64,000 nucleotides of DNA from a bacterium (GCA_021813125.1 JAKALT010000001.1:64023-128022), one strand, 5' to 3'; shown: positions 5,826 through 49,764, counted from the stretch's first letter. Notes: a model not told the origin generated them from the sequence alone. Numbers and translations: made by a program.

Positions 5826-6488
5826 ATGAAATCTAGGATATTTTCCGGGTTTTATAAAATACTTTCGCTTTTTTCCCGTTTCCCAAAAAAGAACAAAGAG
5901 CGCTTTGTCTATGTGGCAATAGGTGATTCGTCCGTTGAAGGGGTCGGAGCTAGTCATCACACCAAATCATATCCTTCACTCATTTTTGAAAAAATAAAAT
6001 TAACTTACCCTAAAGGTGAATATCACAATCTGGGCAAAAGCGGCGACAGGATAGAGCATGTCGTTAAAAAACAGCTGCCGCAAGTTTTGGAGCTTAAACC
6101 AAACCTGGTAACAGTCAGCATCGGCGTGAACGACATCCGGGGCCGCGTAAAACTTTCCGATTTTGAAAAAGACCTTATGTATCTTGTAAGCACACTTCAA
6201 AACAAAACGGATGCCAAAATTATAATCAATAACATTCCCGATTTCTCCGCATTACCCACGTTGCCGATTTACATCCGGATCGCATCAAAGATTCTCATTC
6301 ACCGTTTCAACAGGTCAATTGAAAAAATATCCGACAACCTCAACATTACTTTGGTTGATATCTTTAAAGTTAGTAGGTATTTCTGCAAACAATGGAAAAA
6401 ATTCATTTCAAATGACGGTTTACACCCGTCCGATGCCGGCTACGCCCTCTGGGCGGAAACAATAATAGCTAACCTGACGTTCTTGTAA
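5826..6488 (+). CDS. SGNH/GDSL-family hydrolase
   Basis: 'AIGDSS' GDS(L) block I and C-terminal 'DGLHP' (DxxH) catalytic block; strong AAGGAGG RBS. Confidence 0.75.
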   Translation: MKSRIFSGFYKILSLFSRFPKKNKERFVYVAIGDSSVEGVGASHHTKSYPSLIFEKIKLTYPKGEYHNLGKSGDRIEHVVKKQLPQVLELKPNLVTVSIGVNDIRGRVKLSDFEKDLMYLVSTLQNKTDAKIIINNIPDFSALPTLPIYIRIASKILIHRFNRSIEKISDNLNITLVDIFKVSRYFCKQWKKFISNDGLHPSDAGYALWAETIIANLTFL

Positions 6489-7896
6489 GGAGTTGGGAAA
6501 GCCTTTTTGTTAAATAGTCTCTGGTATTTTTTGCCTTATCGTCCGCCACTTCTTCGAAAAGTTTTGAAAGGATCTCGCCGACTTTTGGTCCGGGTTTAAG
6601 ATCAAGAATTTTCATCACATCATTTCCATCAATAGCAAGATCGGCAACTGTGAACGGTTTTTTCAAAACTTCTTTGAGACGGGACCTAAAAAGTTTTAGT
6701 CTCCAAGACTCGGGCTGTTGAAGTCCGCCACCCAAACGATCGCCAATTCTAAGATCCATCATATCCTCAACATTTTCTAAACCGATATTTTTGATAAAAC
6801 GCCTAAGTGCCCTATCCGTTTGGTTTTCATTTACCGAAAACTGGTGCCAGCGCACCAAGCGAAATAGTTTGTCGCGCTCATCCCTCGAAAGGTGAAAACG
6901 CTCGGCAATTGCTACCGCCTGCCTTGCCCCAACTACCTCATGATTATGGAATGTCCGTACCCCTTCTTCTGTGACTTTGGCAACTTTCGCTTTGCCGATA
7001 TCATGAAGCATTGTGGCAAAGCGGGTAATTGTGTCTTTGGATGGGCAAGCATCAAGTGACATCACACAATGTGTTCCGACATCGTAAATATGGTGGCGTT
7101 TAGGGCTTTTCTGCTCGACGGCAAAACAAACCTCAAGTTCCGGTAAGATTACGGTTAATACGCTTAATTTTTTAGCCAAAAATATTCCGGAAGATGGAGT
7201 CGGGGAATCCACAATTTTAAAAACTTCATCGCGGATCCGCTCTCCGGAAATTTTGGAAATTAAACTCGCATTATCCTCAATTGCTTTGGCTGTCGCAGGG
7301 TCAATATCAAACCCCAGAGTTGTCGCAAACCTTATTGCCCGGAGCATCCTTAGTGCGTCCTCCCCAAACCGCTCGTTGGCATCACCAACAGTTTTTATAA
7401 GTTTATTTTTCAGGTCATCCTGTCCACCAAAAGGGTCAACCAAGTCCCAGTTACCAAGCTCAAGGCCAGGCCTTTGTCCAGAACCTTCTTCGTTAAGGCC
7501 TGGCCTTTCCCCACGTCTCAACGCCATGGCATTTATCGTAAAATCGCGGCGGGCTAAATCTTCCTGTAGCGTTTTTCCCCATTTGACTGTGTCCGGATGA
7601 CGAGTATCCGAGTAACCCTCCTCGGACCGATAAGTTGTGATCTCAACTATGTTCTCATCTTTGGTCTCTGGCTCCTGGCCACTGGAAACTGGCACCCCTA
7701 CTGTTCCAAACCTGTTATTATAAAATCCGTCAGGAAAAATCTTTAAAATTTCTTCCGGTTCTGCATTTGTTGTTAAATCCCAATCACCGACTTTGTTGCC
7801 CGACAAAATATCTCTTACCGCACCGCCGACAACTGCAGCTTCAAAACCCGCTTTTTCTAATTTTTCTAAAATATCAATAATCTTTTTGTCGACCAT
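6469..7896 (-). CDS. cca: CCA-adding tRNA nucleotidyltransferase with HD domain, carrying an in-frame repeat insertion
   Basis: 'GGAVRD...GDWDLTT' PolyA_pol head; 'RRDFTINAMA', 'DPFGG', 'ERFGEDALRMLRAIRF', 'HDIGK' HD motif; about 20 extra residues between NAMA and DPFGG. Confidence 0.85.
   Translation of the reverse strand: MVDKKIIDILEKLEKAGFEAAVVGGAVRDILSGNKVGDWDLTTNAEPEEILKIFPDGFYNNRFGTVGVPVSSGQEPETKDENIVEITTYRSEEGYSDTRHPDTVKWGKTLQEDLARRDFTINAMALRRGERPGLNEEGSGQRPGLELGNWDLVDPFGGQDDLKNKLIKTVGDANERFGEDALRMLRAIRFATTLGFDIDPATAKAIEDNASLISKISGERIRDEVFKIVDSPTPSSGIFLAKKLSVLTVILPELEVCFAVEQKSPKRHHIYDVGTHCVMSLDACPSKDTITRFATMLHDIGKAKVAKVTEEGVRTFHNHEVVGARQAVAIAERFHLSRDERDKLFRLVRWHQFSVNENQTDRALRRFIKNIGLENVEDMMDLRIGDRLGGGLQQPESWRLKLFRSRLKEVLKKPFTVADLAIDGNDVMKILDLKPGPKVGEILSKLFEEVADDKAKNTRDYLTKRLSQLLTRTSG
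7462..7509. repeat. Palindromic hairpin repeat copy (AAGGCCAGGCCTT-N19-AAGGCCTGGCCTT) embedded in-frame in cca
   Basis: Perfect 13-bp inverted repeat; encodes 'GERPGLNEEGSGQRPGLELG' in the cca reading frame. Confidence 0.7.
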
Positions 7897-10151: not shown

Positions 10152-10748
10152 TTAGGTACTTAAAAAAATCAAGCACTTCTTTTGCCCCCCCCGGCTCATT
10201 CTCTTGCGCCTTGAAATATCATCAAACTTCGCCGGGACTAAAGATGGGTGATGTAAATTTAGTAACAATTTACCACCAGGTTTAAGTACTCTTTGGGTTT
10301 CCTCGATTGCCTCTGGTGGCATAAAATCAATCGCCATGCTCGAGAGCGCGATATCGAAAACTCGATCACCAAACGGTAATTTAGAGCCGCTTGCTCTGAT
10401 ATGTGGGGCAAGTGATTTACAAAGTAAATTTCTAGCTGAAACGCAAGCTATATCTACCGAAACGAAATCTAGACCCTCCCTTCCATACGCCTGTATGTAC
10501 TCTCTCTCAAAAACTTGTCTTCCGGCACCCAGATCTAACACTCGCGCTGTGCCGGAAAGATTATGCAAAGCAGCGTTAAGCCTTCGTCTTAAAGAAACCC
10601 TGCTTTTGTTAGGGCTATCTTCCTTTTCATTTGCATAAAATCTAGTATAAAAACTAGACATTGTATTCTCCGTTCCTGGAGCAATTTTTGTTTCGACTCC
10701 CATTTTCCTCCAACAAAAAAACCTCCCGTTTGGGAGGTATTTTTTCAA
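10152..10748 (-). CDS. Class I SAM-dependent methyltransferase, N-terminal part, interrupted at a C8 homopolymer (probable true start near 10703)
   Basis: 'VLDLGAGRQ' motif I and 'LKPGGKLLLN' motif; the -1 frame stays open for 66 more codons to about 10014 after the poly-C tract at 10190-10197. Confidence 0.6.
   Translation of the reverse strand: MKKYLPNGRFFCWRKMGVETKIAPGTENTMSSFYTRFYANEKEDSPNKSRVSLRRRLNAALHNLSGTARVLDLGAGRQVFEREYIQAYGREGLDFVSVDIACVSARNLLCKSLAPHIRASGSKLPFGDRVFDIALSSMAIDFMPPEAIEETQRVLKPGGKLLLNLHHPSLVPAKFDDISRRKRMSRGGQKKCLIFLST
10722..10747. terminator. Terminator-like GC hairpin (CCTCCC-GTTT-GGGAGG) flanked by A/T runs on both strands
   Basis: 6-bp GC stem with 4-nt loop, preceded by A7 and followed by TATTTTTT; lies between the methyltransferase start and the aspS leader. 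Confidence 0.4.
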
Positions 10749-10886
10749 ATCTGGCTTTAAATTAAGCCAATACCCCCCTGGGCCTCTTGACGAGCAAGAG
10801 ACTTACTGTAATGAGGTTAAATTTGACAAAATTTAAATGCATCGTGAAAATTGTAAGTTCTCCGAGCTTTGCTTGTCAAGCCACCT

Positions 10887-10937
10887 AAAGGTCAGGCCTT
10901 TTTCTTGCACGTTCCATTTTTAAGGCCTGACCTTTTA
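10887..10937. repeat. Palindromic hairpin repeat copy (AAAGGTCAGGCCTT-N20-AAGGCCTGACCTTTT) in the aspS upstream region
   Basis: 13-bp perfect inverted repeat of the same family as 7462, 33680, 49216. Confidence 0.65.
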
Positions 10938-10980
10938 CAACTGCTGGCACAAGCAGCCGATTTGGTTTAGAATCTACTCT

Positions 10981-14335: not shown

Positions 14336-14415
14336 GAATTAAATTGAGTAATACTTCTGTCGGTGATACAATTTTAACCTGAGGTACACCAGGGGTCAAT
14401 TGAGCTAAAGACTGT

Positions 14416-14465
14416 GTTAAGGCTAAGCCTTAACCTAAGCCTAGTTTAAAAAAAGACCTGGCCTT
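14416..14465. repeat. Degenerate copy of the palindromic hairpin repeat upstream of gltX
   Basis: 'AAGGCTAAGCCTT ... AAGACCTGGCCTTT'; 2-3 mismatches per arm to the family consensus. Confidence 0.35.
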
Positions 14466-14477
14466 TATCTCGCGAGC

Positions 14478-15758
14478 ATGCAAAAAGTTAGAGTCCGCTA
14501 CGGCCCATCCCCAACAGGAATTCCCCACATTGGAAACATAAGAACCGCTCTTTTTAACTTCCTTTTTGCCAAAAACCAAGAGGGAAAATTTTTTCTTAGA
14601 ATCGAAGACACGGATCAGGCACGGATTGTTCCGGGTGCAGTCGAAAAGATAAAAGAAAGCCTCAAGTCATTAAATCTTACCTGGGACGAAGATATCATCT
14701 TTCAGTCAAAACGCCTGGACATTTACCAAAAATATCTAAATGATCTCAAATCGAAGGGCTTTGCGTATGAAGACGAAGGTGCCTGGCGCTTTAAAATTCA
14801 AACAGAAAAGAAATCCGTAAGCTGGCAGGATGTTGTCCACGGACCTGTCGAATTCCCGACAAATGTCATAGAGGATTTCATAATCATAAAATCCGACGGT
14901 TTCCCTACGTATCATTTTGCATCGGTTGTTGACGATCACTTAATGGAAATCTCGCATGTTATGCGCGGCGACGAGTGGATTTCTTCAACACCTAAGCACC
15001 TACTTTTGTATGAGGCACTAGGTTGGCAGCATCCACAATTTGTTCATCTGCCACCCATTTTAGGGGCAGACCACAAAAAACTTTCTAAACGGGAAGGGGC
15101 AAAATCCGTTTTGGAATATATCGACGAGGGCTATCTTTCCGAAGCAATAGTCAATTTTCTGGCACTTTTGGGATGGTCACCCAAAGGCAATCAGGAAATT
15201 TTCTCACTCAACGAGCTCAAAGAAGAATTTTCGCTCGACCGCATCAACAAAAACAGCCCCATTTTCAATATCGAAAAATTAGGTTGGTTCAACCAGAAGA
15301 GGATTATTAAAATGACTACTGATGATTTAGCTCTAAAATTAAAAGACCTAAATTACAATCGACAATCAGAACATCTCAGAAAAAATAACAGATATTACAA
15401 AACCGATACGCTTTTTAAGCAAATCGTTGGCCTTTCGAAGGAAAGAATAGTGACCTTAAGAGAATTTTACGAACTTGCAGCTCCAATCTGGGAATATAAA
15501 CCTGTTTCCAGAACGGAACAAGATGTCGCTATAGCTAAAGATCTCGAAAAGAGCTTGCAACAGATACTAAATATCAATTGGACTACAGATAAAATTCTGG
15601 AAGAACTAAAAAAATTATTAGGAAGGCATAACGTTAAAATGAGTTCATGCTATCGTATAATCACAGGCAGGGAGAAAGGTTTACCTCTACCTGAGACGCT
15701 CGAAATTTTGGGCAAAGACGAAGTATTAAAAAGAATAAGTGACGCAATCAAAATCTAG
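14478..15758 (+). CDS. gltX: Glutamyl-tRNA synthetase
   Basis: 'PSPTGIPHIGN' HIGH motif and 'KLSKR' KMSKS motif. Confidence 0.9.
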   Translation: MQKVRVRYGPSPTGIPHIGNIRTALFNFLFAKNQEGKFFLRIEDTDQARIVPGAVEKIKESLKSLNLTWDEDIIFQSKRLDIYQKYLNDLKSKGFAYEDEGAWRFKIQTEKKSVSWQDVVHGPVEFPTNVIEDFIIIKSDGFPTYHFASVVDDHLMEISHVMRGDEWISSTPKHLLLYEALGWQHPQFVHLPPILGADHKKLSKREGAKSVLEYIDEGYLSEAIVNFLALLGWSPKGNQEIFSLNELKEEFSLDRINKNSPIFNIEKLGWFNQKRIIKMTTDDLALKLKDLNYNRQSEHLRKNNRYYKTDTLFKQIVGLSKERIVTLREFYELAAPIWEYKPVSRTEQDVAIAKDLEKSLQQILNINWTTDKILEELKKLLGRHNVKMSSCYRIITGREKGLPLPETLEILGKDEVLKRISDAIKI

Positions 15759-16401
15759 AAAAGCTGTTGTCGGCGTTTTCGCCCATCCGGACGACGAATC
15801 TTTTGGACCATCAGGTACTATTGCCAAGTTTGCCAAAACTCACGATGTTTATATTCTGTGTGCCACAAAGGGGGAGGAGGGAATGGGCCCAAAATCCAAC
15901 CTTGGCAAGATACGGGCCCAAGAACTTCAAAATTCGGCAAGAATTCTCGGGGTAAAAGCAGTTTACTTTTTAGGATTTTTAGACGGTACTCTTTCCAATA
16001 ACCTGTATCACAAATTAGCCTCCAAAATAGAAAAAAAACTTAAAATGCTAAAACCGGAAATTATAATTACCACAGAACCCAACGGAGTTTCCGGCCATAT
16101 AGACCACATTACTGTTTCCATGGTCACAACCTTTGTTTTTCGTAAACTGCCTTTTGCAAAAACTCTTATGTATTACTGTATAGACGAAAGATCGGCGGCC
16201 AAAATGAAAAATTATTTTATTTATTTTCCGCCGGGCTACAAACGCACTCAGGTCGACAAAATTATAAATACCGAAAAATATTGGCATCTTAAAAAACAGG
16301 CAATGATGGCACATAAATCGCAAGTAGAAGATGCCAAAAGAGTTTTGGCCAGAATGGAAAACTTGCCCAAGGAAGAGTATTTCTCAATAAAGAAGAAATG
16401 A
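15739..16401 (+). CDS. PIG-L/LmbE family N-acetylglucosaminyl deacetylase
   Basis: 'VGVFAHPDDESFGPSGT' PIG-L signature; conserved His/Asp residues. Confidence 0.75.
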   Translation: MTQSKSRKAVVGVFAHPDDESFGPSGTIAKFAKTHDVYILCATKGEEGMGPKSNLGKIRAQELQNSARILGVKAVYFLGFLDGTLSNNLYHKLASKIEKKLKMLKPEIIITTEPNGVSGHIDHITVSMVTTFVFRKLPFAKTLMYYCIDERSAAKMKNYFIYFPPGYKRTQVDKIINTEKYWHLKKQAMMAHKSQVEDAKRVLARMENLPKEEYFSIKKK

Positions 16402-17624
16402 AAATTTTCAACACTTTTTCCGGGAAAAAAGAGAAAATAAATCTTGGGGAAAGAATCGGAATTTACGTTTGTGGAATTACACCCGATGCTCCAGCACACT
16501 TAGGTCACGCTTTTCTGTTCGTAACTTACGATACCCTCATTCGCTATTTAAGGTTTTTAGGCGCAAAAGTTACATATGTCCAGAATGTAACGGACATTGA
16601 CGATGACATACTAATAAGGTCAAAAAAAGCCGGCCTTTCCTGGGAAGAAATGGGAAATATTCAAACAAAAAATTACATTAAGAATATGGATGCTTTAAAT
16701 GTTGTCCGTCCGGATTTTTATCCGAAAGCTACCGAAAATGTAGGGCAAATGATAACAATTATCAAAAAACTGGTTGCAAAAAAACTTGCTTATACCAAAA
16801 ATGGCTCCGTTTTAGGCCCGCAGTCCGAAAGACGAGGACCGCAGAGCTCTGTCTATTTTTCTGTTTTAAAAGACAAAAACTTCGGTAAGCTTTCAAAATA
16901 CGACTATCCGGCTATGCTGGAAATTGCAAATGAAAGAGGTAATTTTCCCGAAGACCCAATTAAAAATAACCCTTTAGATTTTGTCCTTTGGCAGGCCAAA
17001 AAAGAAGGGGAACCTTCATGGCCCTCACCATGGGGAAACGGTCGGCCGGGTTGGCATATAGAATGTTCGGTGATGTCAATGCGCTATCTTGGCCCGACGA
17101 TTACAATCCATGGCGGGGGATCGGATCTCATATTTCCTCACCACGAAGCAGAGATCGCTCAATCCCAAAACGTAACCGGCAAGAAATTCGTAAAAGCTTG
17201 GATGCACACTGCAATGGTTTTTTGCGAGGGCAAAAAGATGAGCAAAAGCCTTGGCAACATGATTTTTATCTCAGATCTAATTAAAAAATATTCACCCAAC
17301 ACGATTCGTATACTGCTTCTTTCGCACCACTACAGAAACCCCTGGAATTTTGATGAAGCGGAATTAGAAAAGGCCGAAAAAATTATAGCCACGTTCAAGC
17401 AAGCGCTAAAAGGTCAGGCCCTAGCATTAGCTCAGCATGGAAAAAGACCTGACCTTAAATATGCCCAAAAATATCTGCCTGCTTTTTTCAAATCCTTAGA
17501 CGACGACTTTAACACACCGGCCGCAATCAAGGTTTTAGAAAAAGCCGCAAAATCTAAAAAGCCCGAAACAAAAGCTGCCGTAATTTTAGCCGCATCACAA
17601 ATCTTTGGATTAAATCTTTCGTAA
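16398..17624 (+). CDS. cysS: Cysteinyl-tRNA synthetase (short form, 408 aa)
   Basis: N-terminus 'MKIFNTFSGKKE', 'YVCGITPDAPAHLGHAF', 'KMSKSLGN', 'DDDFNTP'; C-terminus shorter than E. coli CysRS. Confidence 0.8.
   Translation: MKIFNTFSGKKEKINLGERIGIYVCGITPDAPAHLGHAFLFVTYDTLIRYLRFLGAKVTYVQNVTDIDDDILIRSKKAGLSWEEMGNIQTKNYIKNMDALNVVRPDFYPKATENVGQMITIIKKLVAKKLAYTKNGSVLGPQSERRGPQSSVYFSVLKDKNFGKLSKYDYPAMLEIANERGNFPEDPIKNNPLDFVLWQAKKEGEPSWPSPWGNGRPGWHIECSVMSMRYLGPTITIHGGGSDLIFPHHEAEIAQSQNVTGKKFVKAWMHTAMVFCEGKKMSKSLGNMIFISDLIKKYSPNTIRILLLSHHYRNPWNFDEAELEKAEKIIATFKQALKGQALALAQHGKRPDLKYAQKYLPAFFKSLDDDFNTPAAIKVLEKAAKSKKPETKAAVILAASQIFGLNLS
17408..17457. repeat. Hairpin-repeat-like palindrome inside the cysS coding sequence (AAAGGTCAGGCCC-N22-AAAGACCTGACCTTA)
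   Basis: Imperfect copy (2 mismatches) of the family; translates in-frame as 'KGQALALAQHGKRPDLKY'. Confidence 0.4.
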
Positions 17625-28304: not shown

Positions 28305-28375
28305 TGCGGGATCGTCTAATGGTAGGACGACGGATTCTGGATCCGTCTATCTAGGTTCGAATCCTAGTCCCGCAG
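28305..28375 (+). tRNA. tRNA-Gln (anticodon CUG)
   Basis: Cloverleaf: acceptor TGCGGGA/TCCCGCA (U1:A72 as in bacterial tRNA-Gln), anticodon stem-loop ACGGA-TTCTGGA-TCCGT, T-arm CTAGG-TTCGAAT-CCTAG, discriminator G; CCA not encoded. Confidence 0.8.
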
Positions 28376-28532
28376 CAAAGTTAACTTTTCAAGAAATTGG
28401 TAAAAAATGAAGCTAATAGGTTCCAGAATATATTTATTCCCCTGTAGTTTTAGCCTTGCAGCGGAATTGGAGTAGAACCCAAACTAATAAATAGTTTATT
28501 ACGATTTGAAAATAACACATTTTAGGCGTCTC

Positions 28533-28571
28533 TTGACATAGTACATAGTACACTGTATACTATGTACTATG
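28533..28571 (+). promoter_or_regulatory. Consensus promoter (TTGACA-N17-TATACT) overlapping a perfect 14-bp inverted repeat operator (CATAGTACATAGTA-N7-TACTATGTACTATG)
   Basis: -35 at 28533-28538, -10 at 28556-28561, IR arms 28537-28550 and 28558-28571; ATG at 28573, so an essentially leaderless transcript. Confidence 0.55.
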
Positions 28572-28572
28572 T

Positions 28573-29580
28573 ATGAAGACTGATACTGCTGAAAAAATTA
28601 TTGGATATATTGCAATCAACAAACAGGCTCGTGCGCATGATATTGGAAGAATATTTAATATTGGCCAGCCTGCTGTTCATAGACAGCTAAAAAAGCTTGT
28701 AGAACAAGGCACACTTCAAAAAGTAGGCAAACCCCCACTTGTTTTTTACATACTGGCTCCAAAAAACCAAACTGAAAATATTTTGGGTAAGGCATCTATT
28801 TTGGGCAGAAATACAGTTGATTACATAGATAAAAATTATTTGTACATTACTCCTCAGGGAGAATTGCTCTATGGGCTTGAAGGATTTAAGCAGTGGGCTA
28901 AATCTATAAAAGAAGAATCACGCCTTGTGCCTCTGTCGGAAGAATACGTAAAAATGCACACTCAGGCAGAAGTAAGCAGATCTTCCGAAGGATGGATTGA
29001 TGCAACGCATAAAATCAAAACTACTTTTTTTGAAAATGCTATAACAAAACTATTTTATGGTGATTTTTACAGTATTCCAAAATTTGGAAAAACAAAGTTG
29101 GGTAATTTAGTTTTGTATTCTAAACAATCTCAAAACAGAGAACTTATTGATAAAGCAGTGGAGGAAGTAAAACCAATTATTGATCAAATAATTGCAATGT
29201 ATAACATTGACACTATTGCCTTTGCCCCTCCAAGCTTACCTCGGAAACTGCAATTCATGCAGGAATTTGCTGATAGGCTTAATATAAATCTACCTAAAAT
29301 TCACTTGGTAAAGTTATACAAGGGAAATATTATTGTTGCTCAAAAATCACTCGCTGGCCTTGAAGAAAGAATAACGAATGCTAGGGATACAATTTATCTG
29401 AAGTCGCAGGTTCCCATAAACGCCCGAAATATCCTGTTAATTGATGACGCGGTAGGATCTGGAGCAACTTTAAATGAGATTGCAAAGAAGCTTCAAGCCA
29501 GCAATACTAATAAAAAAACAATTATCGGGTTTGCAATTGTTGGAAGTGTAAAAGGATTTGAAGTTATCAGAGAAATCTAA
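28573..29580 (+). CDS. ComF-family phosphoribosyltransferase-domain protein with N-terminal winged-helix DNA-binding domain
   Basis: N-terminal wHTH ('HDIGRIFNIGQPAVHRQLKKLVEQG'); C-terminal PRTase motif 'ILLIDDAVGSGATL' with ComF-like upstream blocks ('IDTIAFAPPS', 'RxxQF'). Confidence 0.55.
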   Translation: MKTDTAEKIIGYIAINKQARAHDIGRIFNIGQPAVHRQLKKLVEQGTLQKVGKPPLVFYILAPKNQTENILGKASILGRNTVDYIDKNYLYITPQGELLYGLEGFKQWAKSIKEESRLVPLSEEYVKMHTQAEVSRSSEGWIDATHKIKTTFFENAITKLFYGDFYSIPKFGKTKLGNLVLYSKQSQNRELIDKAVEEVKPIIDQIIAMYNIDTIAFAPPSLPRKLQFMQEFADRLNINLPKIHLVKLYKGNIIVAQKSLAGLEERITNARDTIYLKSQVPINARNILLIDDAVGSGATLNEIAKKLQASNTNKKTIIGFAIVGSVKGFEVIREI

Positions 29581-33040: not shown

Positions 33041-33637
33041 ATGGACGAGCAAATCCAACCACCACAATCTCAATCGCTACCTCAGCCACAACCTCAGCCG
33101 GAGCCTCAACCTCAACCCCAAAATCAATTACCGCCAAAAGGGGGTAACCGTAAAATTGTAGTTGCCGCAATTTTAATTATCCTAATTGCAGCAGGTGCCA
33201 TTATCTATTATTTTGTTTTCAGCAAAAAACTCCAAAAAGCACCTAAACAAGAATTAAACCAAACAACTCAGCAGAACGGTTCCGAATCCGCAAGGATCCA
33301 TGGTCCGGAAATCACAAATTTAGTCATGACCAAAATTGACTCCCAAAAAGGCGCCTATTTAATAGACAAAAAGGGTATGACATTATACGTTTTCGACAAA
33401 GACCAGCTTGGTAAAAGCACCTGCAGTGATACTTGCCTTACCAATTGGCCAATTTTCGAATCTCCTAAACCTGCGCCCGAAAATCTAGAAGGAGAAATCG
33501 GCATCACCAAAGCCACAAACGGAAAATATATGTACACTTACAAAGGAAAGCCGCTTTATTATTACGCCCAGGACAAACTATCCGGAGACACAAAAGGCGA
33601 TGGTGTCAGCGGCGTCTGGCACCTGGCCAAACCGTAA
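33041..33637 (+). CDS. Membrane-anchored secreted-repeat protein (Lipoprotein_15/COG4315-like) with N-terminal PQ-repeat
   Basis: '(PQ)n' low-complexity N-terminus, TM helix, C-terminal 'LYVF..D...S.C...C...WP' and 'LYYY..D' repeat units. Confidence 0.5.
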   Translation: MDEQIQPPQSQSLPQPQPQPEPQPQPQNQLPPKGGNRKIVVAAILIILIAAGAIIYYFVFSKKLQKAPKQELNQTTQQNGSESARIHGPEITNLVMTKIDSQKGAYLIDKKGMTLYVFDKDQLGKSTCSDTCLTNWPIFESPKPAPENLEGEIGITKATNGKYMYTYKGKPLYYYAQDKLSGDTKGDGVSGVWHLAKP

Positions 33638-33679: not shown

Positions 33680-33731
33680 CAAAGGCCAGGCCTTGGCCTA
33701 GGCCGACACTCAGAAAAAGGCCTGACCTTAA
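33680..33731. repeat. Palindromic hairpin repeat copy (AAAGGCCAGGCCTT-N21-AAAGGCCTGACCTTA) at the 3' end of the 33041 gene
   Basis: Same arm consensus as 10887 and 49216; loop contains GGCCTAGGCC. Confidence 0.6.
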
Positions 33732-45986: not shown

Positions 45987-46448
45987 GTGATTTGTCCTTT
46001 TTGTGCCAACGAGGCAACTAAAGTATTAGACAAGCGAGAAGGTGATTTTGGGAAAGTAACCAGAAGACGTCGGGAGTGTCAAAAATGTGGTCGCAGGTTT
46101 ACAACTTTCGAAAGAGCCGAAACTTTAGATCTTTTAATAGTTAAAAAAGACGGAAAAAGAGAAATATTCGACAGGGCCAAACTTAGAAGCGGAATCATCA
46201 AAGCTTGCGAGAAAAGGCCGGTTTCCGCAGAAAGCATCGAGAAGGTTATAGACGAAATCGAAGCGGACTTAAGAAAAAGCAGCGCCAGCGAAGTACCAAG
46301 CAAAACAGTAGGCGAACAAGTGACAAAAAAGCTCAAAAAGTTGGATAAGGTTGCCTACATAAGGTTTGCGTCGGTTTACAGGCAGTTTGCCGATATAAGT
46401 GATTTTGAAAACGAATTGGCCAAACTGTCAAAGAGGTTTAAAAAATGA
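45987..46448 (+). CDS. nrdR: Transcriptional repressor NrdR
   Basis: 'MICPFC...ECQKCGRRFTTFE' zinc ribbon followed by an ATP-cone. Confidence 0.9.
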   Translation: MICPFCANEATKVLDKREGDFGKVTRRRRECQKCGRRFTTFERAETLDLLIVKKDGKREIFDRAKLRSGIIKACEKRPVSAESIEKVIDEIEADLRKSSASEVPSKTVGEQVTKKLKKLDKVAYIRFASVYRQFADISDFENELAKLSKRFKK

Positions 46449-49207
46449 AGACTCAAATTAAAGTTAAAGTAGATTTAAGAACAGCCCAGCGCGAAGCGGC
46501 CCGAAAAGTCGGCAGAAAAATTCTGTCAGCCCCCAAAGACCTTCCCGAACCCAACCTTTCCGAAAACGCCGCTTATATTGCCAAAACCAGATATGCATTT
46601 AGAAATGAAAAGGGCGAGCCGGTTGAAACACCAAGAGAACTTTTTTGGCGCGTTGCTTACTATATTGCCTCGGCAGACCGTATTTATACAGGAAAAGGTG
46701 ATGACGCAAAAACCCACGAAAAAACAGCCCGCGAGTTCTACGGCTTAATGTCCGCCCAGAAATTTATTCCCAATACACCAACTTTGGTCAACTCCGGCAA
46801 AACCGGCCAGTCATTGTCTGCATGTTTTGTCCTGCCGGTAGATGATGACCTCGAGGCTATTTTAAAAACGATGCGCAATATGGCCATGATCCACAAAATG
46901 GGCGGCGGCACAGGATTTTCCTTTTCGCGCCTAAGGCCCAAGGACGATGTTATCGGCACATCAAAAGGCAAAACAACTGGTCCGGTAGCTTTCTTGCAGG
47001 CTTACAACGATGTCACCTCCCAAATCCGCCAAGGGGGAGTCCGCCGTGGTGCCAATATGGGAATTCTCCATTACACCCACCCGGATGTTTTACGCTTTGC
47101 CGTTCACAAAGTCGATGAATTTTCTCTAACCAATTTCAATATTTCTGTAACTGTTGACGAAAAATTTATGGAAAAGGTCAAAACCGACGCCCAATTTACC
47201 CAGGGCGAAATGGAAACAGACGAAATAATCGGAGATCTTAAAGAAGCCTACGCTATTCGCGACTTGGATCTTAAAAACGTTAGGATAGAGGAGGCTGTGA
47301 AAAGGCTCTACGACCTGTGTGAGGCCAAAGAAGAAGGCGAGGGTTACAATCTTATAAATCCCCGAACAAAAGAAGTCACCGGTCGTCTTAACGCCAAAAA
47401 GGTTTTTGATCTTATCACAAAACTTGCCTGGCAGTACGGCGATCCGGGAATGATTCTAATCGACCGCGTCAATAATTCGCGGGCAAACCCAACTCCGGCA
47501 ATCGGCATGATCGAGGCCACAAACCCCTGCGCCGAACAGCCGCTTCTCCCTTACGATGCTTGCACCCTAGGATCGATAAACCTTTCCAAATTCGCTGATG
47601 CCAAAACCAAAGAAATAGGCTGGGAAGACCTCAAACAATCAATTCACACGGCAGTGCACTTTTTAGACAATGTTCTTGATATGAACGAATACCCTGTTGA
47701 CGAAATCGACGAAATGACTTCGCGTATCCGTCGCATTGGCCTCGGCGTCATGGGATGGGCGGACATGCTGGTTAAACTTGGCATCGCATACAACACCCAG
47801 GAAGGATTTGATTTAGCAGAGCGTGTCATGGAATTCGTCCAAAACGAGGCGGATATGGCATCGGTCGAGCTTGCCAAAATCCGGGGCGCCTTTCCGGCTT
47901 TTAAAGACTCAATCTACAATAAAAAAGGTGGTTTCAAGCCCCGAAACGGCGCCAGGACTACGATCGCGCCAACCGGCACCATCTCGCTTCTTGCAGACTG
48001 CTCTTCTGGAATTGAACCTCATTTTGCCTTAACTTTTGCCAAAAACACTATAGAAGGAAAGCGCCTTTTTACTACTAATCCATACTTTCTTGAGGCTCTA
48101 AAATCACAAGGCTTAGAAAGCGACGAGCTCCTTTCCAAGGTTGAAGAAGGTAGAGGATCAATCCAAAAAATTGACGAAATTCCCCAAGACCTTAGAAAAG
48201 TTTTCGTAGTTGCTGGCGATATAGTTCCCAAGGATCATGTCCGAATGGCCGCTGCCTTCCAGAAATTTACCGACAACGGCATTTCAAAAACTATAAACTT
48301 TCCGAACGAAGCAACAGTTGAAGACGTCCGTGAAGCGTATTGGCTAAGTTACGAGTTAGGCTGCAACATGATAACCATTTACCGCGACGGATCCAGGGTA
48401 AAACAAGTTTTGGAGGTCAAAAAAGGTAAATCATATTATGACCAGATGACAGGTAAGAGAATCAGCCAGGAAACACAAGAAGAAATCCCTTACACCCCAA
48501 CCAAACGCCCGACACCCCAGGAAGCCTGGGGTATGCGGATCCGCAAAAAAGCCGACGTCGGCCCGGTTTACACGTCGGTCTTTCGTGATGCCGACGGTGC
48601 GCCTGTTGAAGTCTTTGTCACAATCGGCAAAACCGGCGGATACGTTGCCGGCGCTGCCGAAGTAACAGGCCGTTTGGCATCCCGCGCTCTCAAATACGGT
48701 GCTTCACTTGAGGAAATCGCAACCGATTTGGTTGGCATTTCTTGCGGCACGCCTTACGGTTTGGGCCAGGAATCTGTCCTTTCGGCATTTGATGCGGTTG
48801 GCAAATCACTTTTGGAAATTGCCCGAGCCAAACAGCTCCAGTTGCCGGTTGTAGAAGAAACTCAGCCAGCTCAAATTCAAACCCAAGAAGAAGCAACCAT
48901 CGAGCAAAGAATTCGCATCGCTTCCAATGGTCACACCAACGGACACACATTATCAAATGGCCATTCGAATGGGTTGTCAAACGGTCATTCGAATGGCCAT
49001 ACAAAGCCGCAAACAGCCGACGATAACCAATTAGCTCTCAGCTCGACAATAGCTCCGCAACAAGGTCAAATGATGACGGTTTATCACGAAGAAAAAGCTA
49101 TCGAATCCAAATTCACATCCTGCCCGGACTGCGGCTCGCCGGTAACCTACGCCGAAGGCTGCCGCAAATGTATAAACCCAACTTGCGGTTGGTCCAAGTG
49201 CAGTTAA
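46445..49207 (+). CDS. nrdJ: Adenosylcobalamin-dependent (class II) ribonucleotide reductase
   Basis: 'NPCAEQPLLPYDACTLGSINL' active-site block; C-terminal CxxC...CxxC zinc ribbon; low-complexity 'NGHTNGHTLSNGHSNGLSNGHSNGHT' before the C-terminus. Confidence 0.85.
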   Translation: MKTQIKVKVDLRTAQREAARKVGRKILSAPKDLPEPNLSENAAYIAKTRYAFRNEKGEPVETPRELFWRVAYYIASADRIYTGKGDDAKTHEKTAREFYGLMSAQKFIPNTPTLVNSGKTGQSLSACFVLPVDDDLEAILKTMRNMAMIHKMGGGTGFSFSRLRPKDDVIGTSKGKTTGPVAFLQAYNDVTSQIRQGGVRRGANMGILHYTHPDVLRFAVHKVDEFSLTNFNISVTVDEKFMEKVKTDAQFTQGEMETDEIIGDLKEAYAIRDLDLKNVRIEEAVKRLYDLCEAKEEGEGYNLINPRTKEVTGRLNAKKVFDLITKLAWQYGDPGMILIDRVNNSRANPTPAIGMIEATNPCAEQPLLPYDACTLGSINLSKFADAKTKEIGWEDLKQSIHTAVHFLDNVLDMNEYPVDEIDEMTSRIRRIGLGVMGWADMLVKLGIAYNTQEGFDLAERVMEFVQNEADMASVELAKIRGAFPAFKDSIYNKKGGFKPRNGARTTIAPTGTISLLADCSSGIEPHFALTFAKNTIEGKRLFTTNPYFLEALKSQGLESDELLSKVEEGRGSIQKIDEIPQDLRKVFVVAGDIVPKDHVRMAAAFQKFTDNGISKTINFPNEATVEDVREAYWLSYELGCNMITIYRDGSRVKQVLEVKKGKSYYDQMTGKRISQETQEEIPYTPTKRPTPQEAWGMRIRKKADVGPVYTSVFRDADGAPVEVFVTIGKTGGYVAGAAEVTGRLASRALKYGASLEEIATDLVGISCGTPYGLGQESVLSAFDAVGKSLLEIARAKQLQLPVVEETQPAQIQTQEEATIEQRIRIASNGHTNGHTLSNGHSNGLSNGHSNGHTKPQTADDNQLALSSTIAPQQGQMMTVYHEEKAIESKFTSCPDCGSPVTYAEGCRKCINPTCGWSKCS

Positions 49208-49215
49208 AGCAAGAC

Positions 49216-49269
49216 AAAAGGTCAGGTCTTAAGCTTGGCTCTTGCTGCAAGAAAAAGGCCTGACCTTAA
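49216..49269. repeat. Palindromic hairpin repeat copy (AAAGGTCAGGTCTT-N23-AAAGGCCTGACCTTA) at the nrdJ 3' end
   Basis: Same family; begins 9 nt after the nrdJ stop, so a terminator-like position. Confidence 0.6.
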
Positions 49270-49347: not shown

Positions 49348-49764
49348 ATGAAAAAACCGTCTGTCAAAGATGCAAAAAGGTATGTTTTGACGCTAATCTC
49401 CGAAGAAGATACACAAATCTCTGGCCAAAACCAGGCTATAACAAGGGAGCAGACCCAAGAACTGGAATTTTTTATTAACAACGGTCACTGGGAAGTACTT
49501 TTAACAAATTCGGTTTTCCGCTCGCTTGCGCCACAAGGCCAAATCCATACCCTTTCCAACACGCTTGATAACCGGGCCAAAGAGTTAAGATCAACGCTCA
49601 CACCGCTTGGAAGATCAGACAAAACCCGAGATGCCTACATTCAAATCCTCAACCATATTCACGATTTGGAGCGTCTAAAAGAGGAAATATTGGAAGAATT
49701 TTACGCAAAAGGCGGCAAGCGCCAAATCGCCGAAAAGTCCAAAGGCCAAAAAATCGACTTCTGA
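49348..49764 (+). CDS. Hypothetical protein
   Basis: 138-aa ORF; no recognisable motifs. Confidence 0.4.
   Translation: MKKPSVKDAKRYVLTLISEEDTQISGQNQAITREQTQELEFFINNGHWEVLLTNSVFRSLAPQGQIHTLSNTLDNRAKELRSTLTPLGRSDKTRDAYIQILNHIHDLERLKEEILEEFYAKGGKRQIAEKSKGQKIDF

Follow-up and report, generated by a model that had tools for sequence, protein, structure and literature searches.

Small hairpin repeats in Curtissbacteria-like CPR genomes, a probable REPIN/RPE-like family

Six copies of a hairpin repeat in the window

The DNA analysed here (the window) is a 64,000-nt stretch from a bacterium whose CCA-adding enzyme has its nearest named homologues in Candidatus Curtissbacteria, at 66-68% identity. 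The host is an uncultured, ultra-small Curtissbacteria-like CPR (Patescibacteria) bacterium, and the window sequence has exact matches among metagenome contigs. In the spacer between a methyltransferase gene and the divergent asnS, the window carries at 10887-10935, on the minus strand, a hairpin element whose two 14-nt arms (10887-10900 and 10922-10935) are 100% complementary and lie 21 nt apart, which gives a perfect 14-bp stem around a 21-nt loop. The element is flanked by two promoter-like sites, one for the minus strand (11/12 match, 10879-10850) and one for asnS (9/12 match, 10944-10973); these and the promoter-like site named below are consensus matches only. The same spacer holds a canonical bidirectional terminator hairpin with T-tracts at 10721-10738. 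A block at 10719-10860, downstream of the 11/12 minus-strand promoter match, is common to the window and its relatives WY3.bin73 and L077 and contains a short possible peptide ORF; in Rfam it shows a weak Phe_leader match only (E 0.94), and it could be a small RNA or leader.

The window contains six copies of this ~50-nt hairpin-forming element and no more. Two are in frame in genes: one at 7462-7507 (minus strand; arms 7462-7474 and 7495-7507, a perfect 13-bp stem) encodes ERPGLNEEGSGQRPGL inside a ~23-aa insertion in cca (ORF 6469-7896, minus strand), and a degenerate one at 17410-17456 (plus strand) encodes KGQALALAQHGKRPDL in cysS (ORF 16398-17624), between the catalytic and DALR domains of the protein. 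Two lie in divergent promoter or 5'-UTR spacers: the copy beside asnS, and a copy at 14419-14465 (plus strand) with degenerate arms AAGGCTAAGCCTT / AAGACCTGGCCTT in the putative gltX 5' UTR, with a promoter-like site (14344-14372) on one side and the ATG at 14478 on the other. The remaining two are intergenic, on the plus strand, and follow stop codons. One, at 33682-33729, has a single C/A mismatch in its stem and begins 45 nt past the stop of ORF 33041-33637, with ribH 50 nt further on; the other, at 49218-49267, has one T/G pair in its stem, begins 11 nt past the nrdJ stop (46445-49207) and precedes an orphan ORF at 49348-49764. The first-pass annotation had placed intergenic copies 10-45 nt from a stop codon, which these two distances confirm, but its statement that copies sit mostly at gene 3' ends applies to only two of the six. 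By Pfam, the hosts and neighbours are the CCA-adding enzyme, RecJ, the methyltransferase, AsnRS, GluRS, CysRS, lumazine synthase and the class II ribonucleotide reductase.

Several other features of the window deserve mention in their own right. The orphan ORF, of 138 aa and with no Pfam or NCBIfam match, sits with the neighbouring repeat copy between nrdJ and an S4/pseudouridine synthase gene; in the relatives L079, L080 and L084 the synthase gene lies directly 3' of nrdJ with no element, so ORF and element look like a lineage-specific insertion. The ORF contains an H-I-H triplet, and it was considered as an HUH enzyme and rejected, the position and context of the triplet being unlike HUH and no family matching. 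Within cysS, at 16812-16853, lies a 42-nt in-frame insertion (LGPQSERRGPQSSV) that is unique in the window, is missing from the WY3.bin73 and L077 orthologues and from E. coli CysRS, and includes two copies, 21 nt apart, of the direct repeat GGMCCGCAG. The nrdJ coding region has a perfect 15-nt inverted repeat, ATGGCCATTCGAATG / CATTCGAATGGCCAT, 14 nt apart at 48957-49000. ORF 28573-29580 is immediately preceded by an 18-nt, 94% palindrome (28536-28573) made of the repeat ACATAGTAC; the palindrome lies downstream of tRNA-Gln (28305-28376) and looks like an operator.

The repeat unit consists of inverted 13-nt arms, AAGGYCAGGCCTT / AAGGCCTGRCCTT, that flank a loop of 20-24 nt in the window copies, and each arm is nearly palindromic in itself (AAGGCCnGGCCTT). 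Searching both strands for the arm motif AAGGCCTGRCCTT with up to two mismatches yields 21 matches against 2.9 expected, a count that 0 of 100 shuffles reach, and all but one of these matches (5075) belong to the six paired sites. A covariance model built from the six window copies recovers all of them in the 64 kb, each at E < 1e-17, with no further match better than E = 0.1. A family of ~50-nt hairpin repeats, with copies at 7462, 10887, 33680 and 49216 and degenerate ones at 14416 and 17408, is what the first-pass annotation had proposed, and that proposal holds. Folding energies are -21 to -26 kcal/mol for the four good copies (z -2.9 to -6.5), and the two degenerate ones fold weakly (z -2.5 and -1.0). 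Stems are 13-14 bp long, and neither strand has a U-tract or T-run beside them, in agreement with the earlier description of 13-bp stems lacking U-tracts. No Rfam 15 family covers any copy, at the gathering score or at E up to 5, and a test for restriction-site avoidance finds no depletion of GGCC, AGGCCT or CCWGG outside the elements.

The element has a weak polarity, which comes from its loop and flanks (AAAAGGYCAGGCCTTAA ... RGAAAAAGGCCTGRCCTTWA). The copies at 7462 and 10887 are oriented opposite to the other four, and flipping them raises the mean column identity from 62% to 68%. The loop is partly conserved (AAC...GAAA), and the flank consensus is A/T-rich (..g.a/AAGG ... CCTT/.a.c). As read from the sequence, just one reading frame of the arms contains a stop codon, the TGA in AAGGCCTGACCTT.

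Distribution among genomes and conservation of the stem

A scan with the exact pattern over one genome per species gives 73 loci, nearly all in CPR assemblies, and a profile search of these loci together with the window (0.52 Mb, about 15 CPR assemblies) finds 141 non-redundant copies. The assemblies that bear the element are of Curtiss-, Gottesman-, Collier-, Sacchari- and Paceibacteria types, and viral contigs give 0 pattern matches. The closest sequenced relative, WY3.bin73 (GCA_021813945.1; JAKAJD01), is syntenic with the window at ~77% nucleotide identity and has 71 copies in 183 kb of fetched loci, drawn from three contigs of 640, 306 and 183 kb; copy densities of this kind are biased upward because loci were picked by exact pattern match. 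Several "binchicken" assemblies with copies (CAYTEJ01, CAZEDQ01, CAYHFH01 and CAZRER01; L003-L075) are labelled uncultured Gammaproteobacteria or Bdellovibrionales, and these labels look wrong, because their syntenic blocks are 66-87% identical to WY3.bin73 or to the window.

The family is patchy. A 21-kb syntenic locus from another Curtissbacteria-like genome (L077, with a CCA enzyme 75% identical) keeps the gene order and has zero copies across a stretch in which the window holds four and WY3.bin73 at least five, and the arm is likewise missing, with one mismatch allowed, from 80 related nrdJ loci (518,581 nt; NrdJ 50-87% identical). Presence and absence also differ between WY3.bin73 and CAYTEJ01. 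Copies beyond the window, a dense relative and polymorphism between relatives are as expected of the dispersed, genome-wide element that the first-pass annotation had suggested.

By a simple ORF heuristic, under which 87.5% of the sequence is coding, 78 of the 141 copies are intergenic, 16 overlap a gene end, 38 lie inside an ORF and 9 fall at a locus edge. With about 55% of copies between genes and 27% within ORFs in sequence that is ~87% coding, copies are enriched between genes, and they are not tied to any function: those of WY3.bin73 separate ordinary genes, for example the cistrons of the ATP synthase operon, mreB and sugar-metabolism genes. Among well-oriented copies, orientation with respect to genes is unbiased (21 sense and 18 antisense between co-directional genes, 17 and 8 in ORFs). 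A sense-strand bias was considered, as the six window copies at first seemed to be all sense to a neighbouring gene; it failed on the 141 copies. Adjacent pairs of copies occur in every relative orientation.

The search also turned up variant forms. In one, which recurs in three genomes (at L033 7170-7250, L047 4117-4200 and L009 2588-2645) and in frame in the WY3.bin73 cysS copy, the left arm is doubled (arm, ~7 nt, arm, loop, arm). A short form with a 10-nt loop occurs at L028 6151, L021 2167 and L007 6954. Loci of the Gottesman-, Sacchari- and Paceibacteria types contain single 13-mers centred in longer palindromes that differ from copy to copy (L017 958; L035 2661 and 3854; L058 6585 and 7112; L004 5806-5966), one example being tagcttcgc-AAGGCCTGGCCTT-gcgaagcta; several are flanked by GCGAAGC.

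The stem is the conserved part of the unit. Spacers measure 20-23 nt in 108 of 140 copies, and 84% of arm matches are in doublets, with 16% outside detected doublets. Over 13 orthologous pairs, from genomes that are 65-80% identical, the arms agree at 313 of 338 positions (92.6%), against 53.7% for the loops and 64.6% for the 80-nt flanks. Nearly all arm differences fall at position 5, where T:A, C:G and G:C alternate, and in eight orthologous pairs the switch is fully compensated in both arms; the copy beside asnS is one such case, with T:A in the window and C:G in its WY3.bin73 orthologue. Over all copies the position-5 pair is TA in 49, CG in 58, GC in 16 and non-Watson-Crick in 4, and in WY3.bin73 alone 60 of 62 copies have a Watson-Crick pair there, where shuffling gives a mean of 20.4. 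Polarity shows at the central pair, with A on the 5' arm in 120 copies versus 1. Constraint on the stem is thus both sequence-specific and structure-specific, and it is symmetric between the DNA strands.

Could RNA be what is kept paired? Mismatches on the mRNA strand are G-U-compatible in 14 cases and A-C in 13, which is no preference for G-U. Together with the unbiased orientation and the position of the 10887 copy between divergent promoter-like sites, this places the signature at the DNA level and not at the RNA level. Quasi-palindrome template switching could, with no selection, be a source of the paired changes, but as a full account it fails to explain the invariance of the other twelve arm positions. 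Loops are nearly unrelated between copies within one genome of the window's clade (median identity 52-57%), so there is no sign of recent bursts in that clade; identical copies at different loci are found in a Gottesmanbacteria-type genome only.

Inserted units and the search for what moves them

Comparison of genes that contain a copy with their homologues, made for cca, cysS and sufC, shows that the repeat units are added DNA and not sites that evolved in place. Aligned with CCA enzymes in the PDB, the window's enzyme departs at residues ~127-151, where it has ~23 extra amino acids (RRGERPGLNEEGSGQRPGLELGN) that include ERPGL and QRPGL, the translated arms. Homologues at 80-88% identity share the insert, those at 75-79% have a short turn, RFAQGKLSMTPVDP, in its place, and one relative is left with a single arm, as deletion between the two nearly identical arms would produce. 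At the same loop, other Curtissbacteria carry different inserts, 10-45 residues long, and in some of these the arm-derived GQAL appears. This loop (residues ~127-151; 7444-7518) is an insertion hot spot across Curtissbacteria, with inserts of 0 to ~45 residues whose sequences are unrelated between lineages. The AlphaFold model of the enzyme has a mean pLDDT of 82 and drops below 50 at residues 131-146, which link strands 125-128 and 150-153; the insert is therefore predicted to be a floppy loop in an otherwise confident fold, and the in-frame copy appears from the model to be tolerated as such.

The other cases are similar. CysS is 9-16 aa longer at the element than its L077 orthologue, and the WY3.bin73 orthologue has an additional left arm. 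SufC of WY3.bin73, CAZEDQ01 and CAYTEJ01 contains an in-frame copy and is 10 aa longer there than Thermus SufC. Outside coding sequence, the gltX copy is part of a ~73-nt block that stands between conserved upstream sequence and the start codon; L077 lacks this block, and its ATG adjoins the conserved sequence. Among the relatives compared, none offers an empty site near enough in sequence to fix exact insertion boundaries, and downstream of nrdJ the boundary is unreadable because gene order differs in all of them.

What might move these units? A phmmer search of 2,342 ORFs from the window and the 73 loci, with two seed sequences, IS200 and RAYT, returned a spurious ABC ATPase match only, and Pfam searches of 10 lineage-shared gene families, 10 copy-bracketed genes and 10 window ORFs returned housekeeping functions only. 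The associated transposase, for example an IS200/IS605-type TnpA, that the first-pass annotation had proposed looking for was thus not found, nor was a RAYT or any other HUH or other transposase, in ~0.6 Mb of partial genomes searched at low sensitivity; the mobilising enzyme is consequently one that we infer. The same ~0.6 Mb contains no longer element or parent IS with these ends, and no pair of arms in the loci encloses a transposase-like gene. Target-site duplications, the other check it had named, are absent as well: no 3-6-nt direct repeat occurs at any offset. The flanking dinucleotide is identical in 20 of 115 copies versus 9.5 expected, an excess explained by the A/T-rich palindromic extension of the stem.

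Because the architecture matches that of REPINs and the in-frame insertions match those of RPEs, we think it probable that these are small non-coding hairpin repeats of a REPIN/RPE-like family, spread by insertion and recognised through the stem. Whole units would insert into the chromosome with no target-site duplication, and copies would persist where they are harmless, in intergenic and intercistronic positions, in promoter and 5'-UTR spacers and, in frame, in protein surface loops. Recognition and maintenance would act on the 13-bp stem, leaving loops and flanks to drift. A trans-acting enzyme may read the folded single-stranded DNA hairpin and mobilise it, by analogy with RAYT for REPINs and IS200/IS605 TnpA for its ends, and the complementarity of the arms would be kept afterwards by hairpin-templated correction or by selection.

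Not everything sits easily with a REPIN/RPE-like family. The loci searched have yielded no transposase of any kind, the diverged loops leave no trace of recent bursts in the window's clade, and the REP hallmark 5' GTAG/GTGG is absent. Nor would a purely selfish, decaying repeat be predicted to keep its arms conserved over the long term at orthologous loci; a host-level role or drive fits such conservation equally well. The most interesting alternative is that the 13-mer is a double-stranded recognition site maintained in the host by selection or uptake-driven drive and not by transposition, for example one bound by gyrase, by a DNA-uptake receptor or by a protein that organises the nucleoid or chromosome. 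Arms 93% conserved at orthologous loci with 54-65% around them would follow from this, as would a near-palindromic arm, as in dimer binding sites, one 13-mer shared by several CPR classes amid varied loops and contexts (solo sites included), the independence of orientation from genes, and the failure to find a transposase or target duplication. It is nevertheless unlikely. Position 5 covaries between the arms, something that a hairpin reader requires and a duplex-binding dimer does not, and neither the polar central base nor the fixed-spacing doublets that hold 84% of arms suit such a site. The units, moreover, are inserted, and the patchy distribution, in which 518 kb of related nrdJ loci and the syntenic L077 lack the arm altogether, means that any host role is not conserved in the group.

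In a more novel reading, a CPR-specific protein, neither a RAYT nor an IS transposase, reads the conserved 13-bp stem AAGGCCWGGCCTT, and doublets are kept because the host uses them; candidate readers are a domesticated nuclease or recombinase, a chromosome-organising factor and a DNA-uptake component. This would explain why arms have stayed 93% identical and strictly paired while their surroundings diverged to ~65%, and why the same 13-mer recurs in different contexts in several CPR classes, and we regard it as unlikely.

A role in RNA at gene ends, as U-tract-less terminators or blocks to 3' exonucleases, is what very stable stems 11 and 45 nt past stop codons bring to mind, all the more as WY3.bin73 has copies at many gene boundaries and also within operons, like E. 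coli REPs. Such a role is quite improbable for the family as a whole. Four of the six window copies are away from 3' ends, one of them between a promoter-like site and the gltX start codon, and copies lie within cca, cysS and sufC, where termination would be lethal. No T-run stands on either side and a terminator scan misses the full stems, yet the genome does have a canonical T-tract terminator (10721-10738). Orientation is random with respect to transcription, the mRNA strand shows no G-U bias, and relatives with the same gene order are wholly devoid of copies. That the repeat is not a canonical terminator, as the first-pass annotation had held, is thus upheld by the copies in essential genes and the missing U-tract, and individual copies may secondarily have been co-opted as terminators or stabilisers.

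The arms could also be read as the terminal inverted repeats of a MITE, an internally deleted IS moved by a DDE transposase that duplicates its target, and sub-families with diagnostic flanks and varying presence among relatives would fit. With neither a target-site duplication nor, in ~0.6 Mb, a longer element with the same ends or a transposase, with loops much more diverged than arms and with solo arms centred in unrelated palindromes in other lineages, this origin is very improbable. Of the label REP/MITE-like, under which the repeat was first annotated, the REP half survives, better put as REPIN-like with an RPE-like in-frame habit; the MITE half is unsupported, with no target duplication and, in the loci searched, no parent IS.

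That the hairpin is a conserved small RNA or cis-regulatory motif, as its stability, the strong covariation at one pair and the partly conserved loop (AAC...GAAA) might suggest, is extremely improbable given freely diverging loops, no Rfam match even at E up to 5, both orientations equally common with respect to genes, copies within ORFs and in a probably untranscribed spacer, and close relatives that lack the element. TIGR-Tas arrays were dismissed since the window elements are isolated doublets and not arrays beside a Tas gene, and integron attC sites were dismissed from the sequence, which has no R''/R' core sites and has housekeeping genes as neighbours.

Meaning and comparison with known systems

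A full-text literature search found no description of a dispersed palindromic repeat family, REP, MITE or RAYT in CPR, and none of the four arm sequences. The family is a new one of a known kind of element, with nothing mechanistically new demonstrated. CPR/Patescibacteria genomes, of ~1 Mb, are regarded as streamlined, and a repeat family is unexpected in them. If the REPIN/RPE-like reading is true, some Curtissbacteria-like lineages hold about a hundred or more hairpin repeats, locally up to about one per gene boundary, which reshape promoters and 5' UTRs, and the peptides added to the CCA-adding enzyme, CysRS and SufC would be a second, independent case after Rickettsia. Repeats of this kind can break up metagenome assemblies or join them wrongly and can give conserved proteins a false look of length variation, and they can serve as a marker for lineage tracking. 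The strictly kept stem offers a 13-bp bait for an enzyme or binding protein, and finding its partner would show whether REPIN-like systems exist outside Proteobacteria.

Several known systems share features with the family. Neisseria DNA uptake sequences are mostly single, have evolved in place and occur throughout the family that uses them. They too are short over-represented motifs that frequently stand as inverted pairs behind genes, are tolerated in coding regions and have "dialects" in related taxa, whereas the unit described here is an inserted doublet of patchy distribution. Bacterial MITEs, among them the Neisseria Correia elements and cyanobacterial Nezha, duplicate a TA or other target and can be traced to a parent IS family. 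The present units are likewise small and non-autonomous, have inverted repeats as their boundaries and occasionally insert in frame or alter a promoter; they differ in that neither a target duplication nor a parent IS is seen.

Rickettsia palindromic elements (RPEs), said to have been described by Ogata and colleagues in 2000 (Science 290:347), reportedly lie in frame in housekeeping genes. RPEs measure ~100-150 bp and are confined to Rickettsia; the peptide sits in a tolerated surface loop, and insertions are common to related species. Here, too, a palindromic repeat in a reduced genome lies in frame in housekeeping genes (cca, cysS and sufC), but the unit is ~50 nt long, its host is a CPR bacterium and most copies are intergenic. 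Judged by description, the two appear to have no sequence relationship.

REPINs, which are REPs arranged as inverted doublets, owe their mobility in Pseudomonas and Enterobacteria to RAYT transposases (PMC3116915, PMC3337134, PMC5581495); they are described as conserved inverted REPs around a less conserved spacer of fixed length, with common compensatory changes and doublets over-represented (PMC3116915). Unlike REPINs, the present units come with no RAYT or other HUH gene in the partial genomes at hand and no GTAG/GTGG 5' motif, are not strictly extragenic (about a quarter of copies are in frame in genes) and are much smaller (13-nt arms, ~50 nt overall), in a host with a ~1-Mb CPR genome. 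REP sequences are usually lineage-specific, whereas the same arm sequence occurs here across several distantly related CPR lineages. In their architecture the two agree closely: both are inverted doublets of a short near-palindromic unit, with conserved arms, a spacer conserved in length but not in sequence, and a long hairpin with frequent compensatory changes and no target duplication. They also agree in habit, as doublets far outnumber singlets, copies form adjacent pairs or clusters, most lie between genes, within operons included, and they persist for a long time at orthologous loci.
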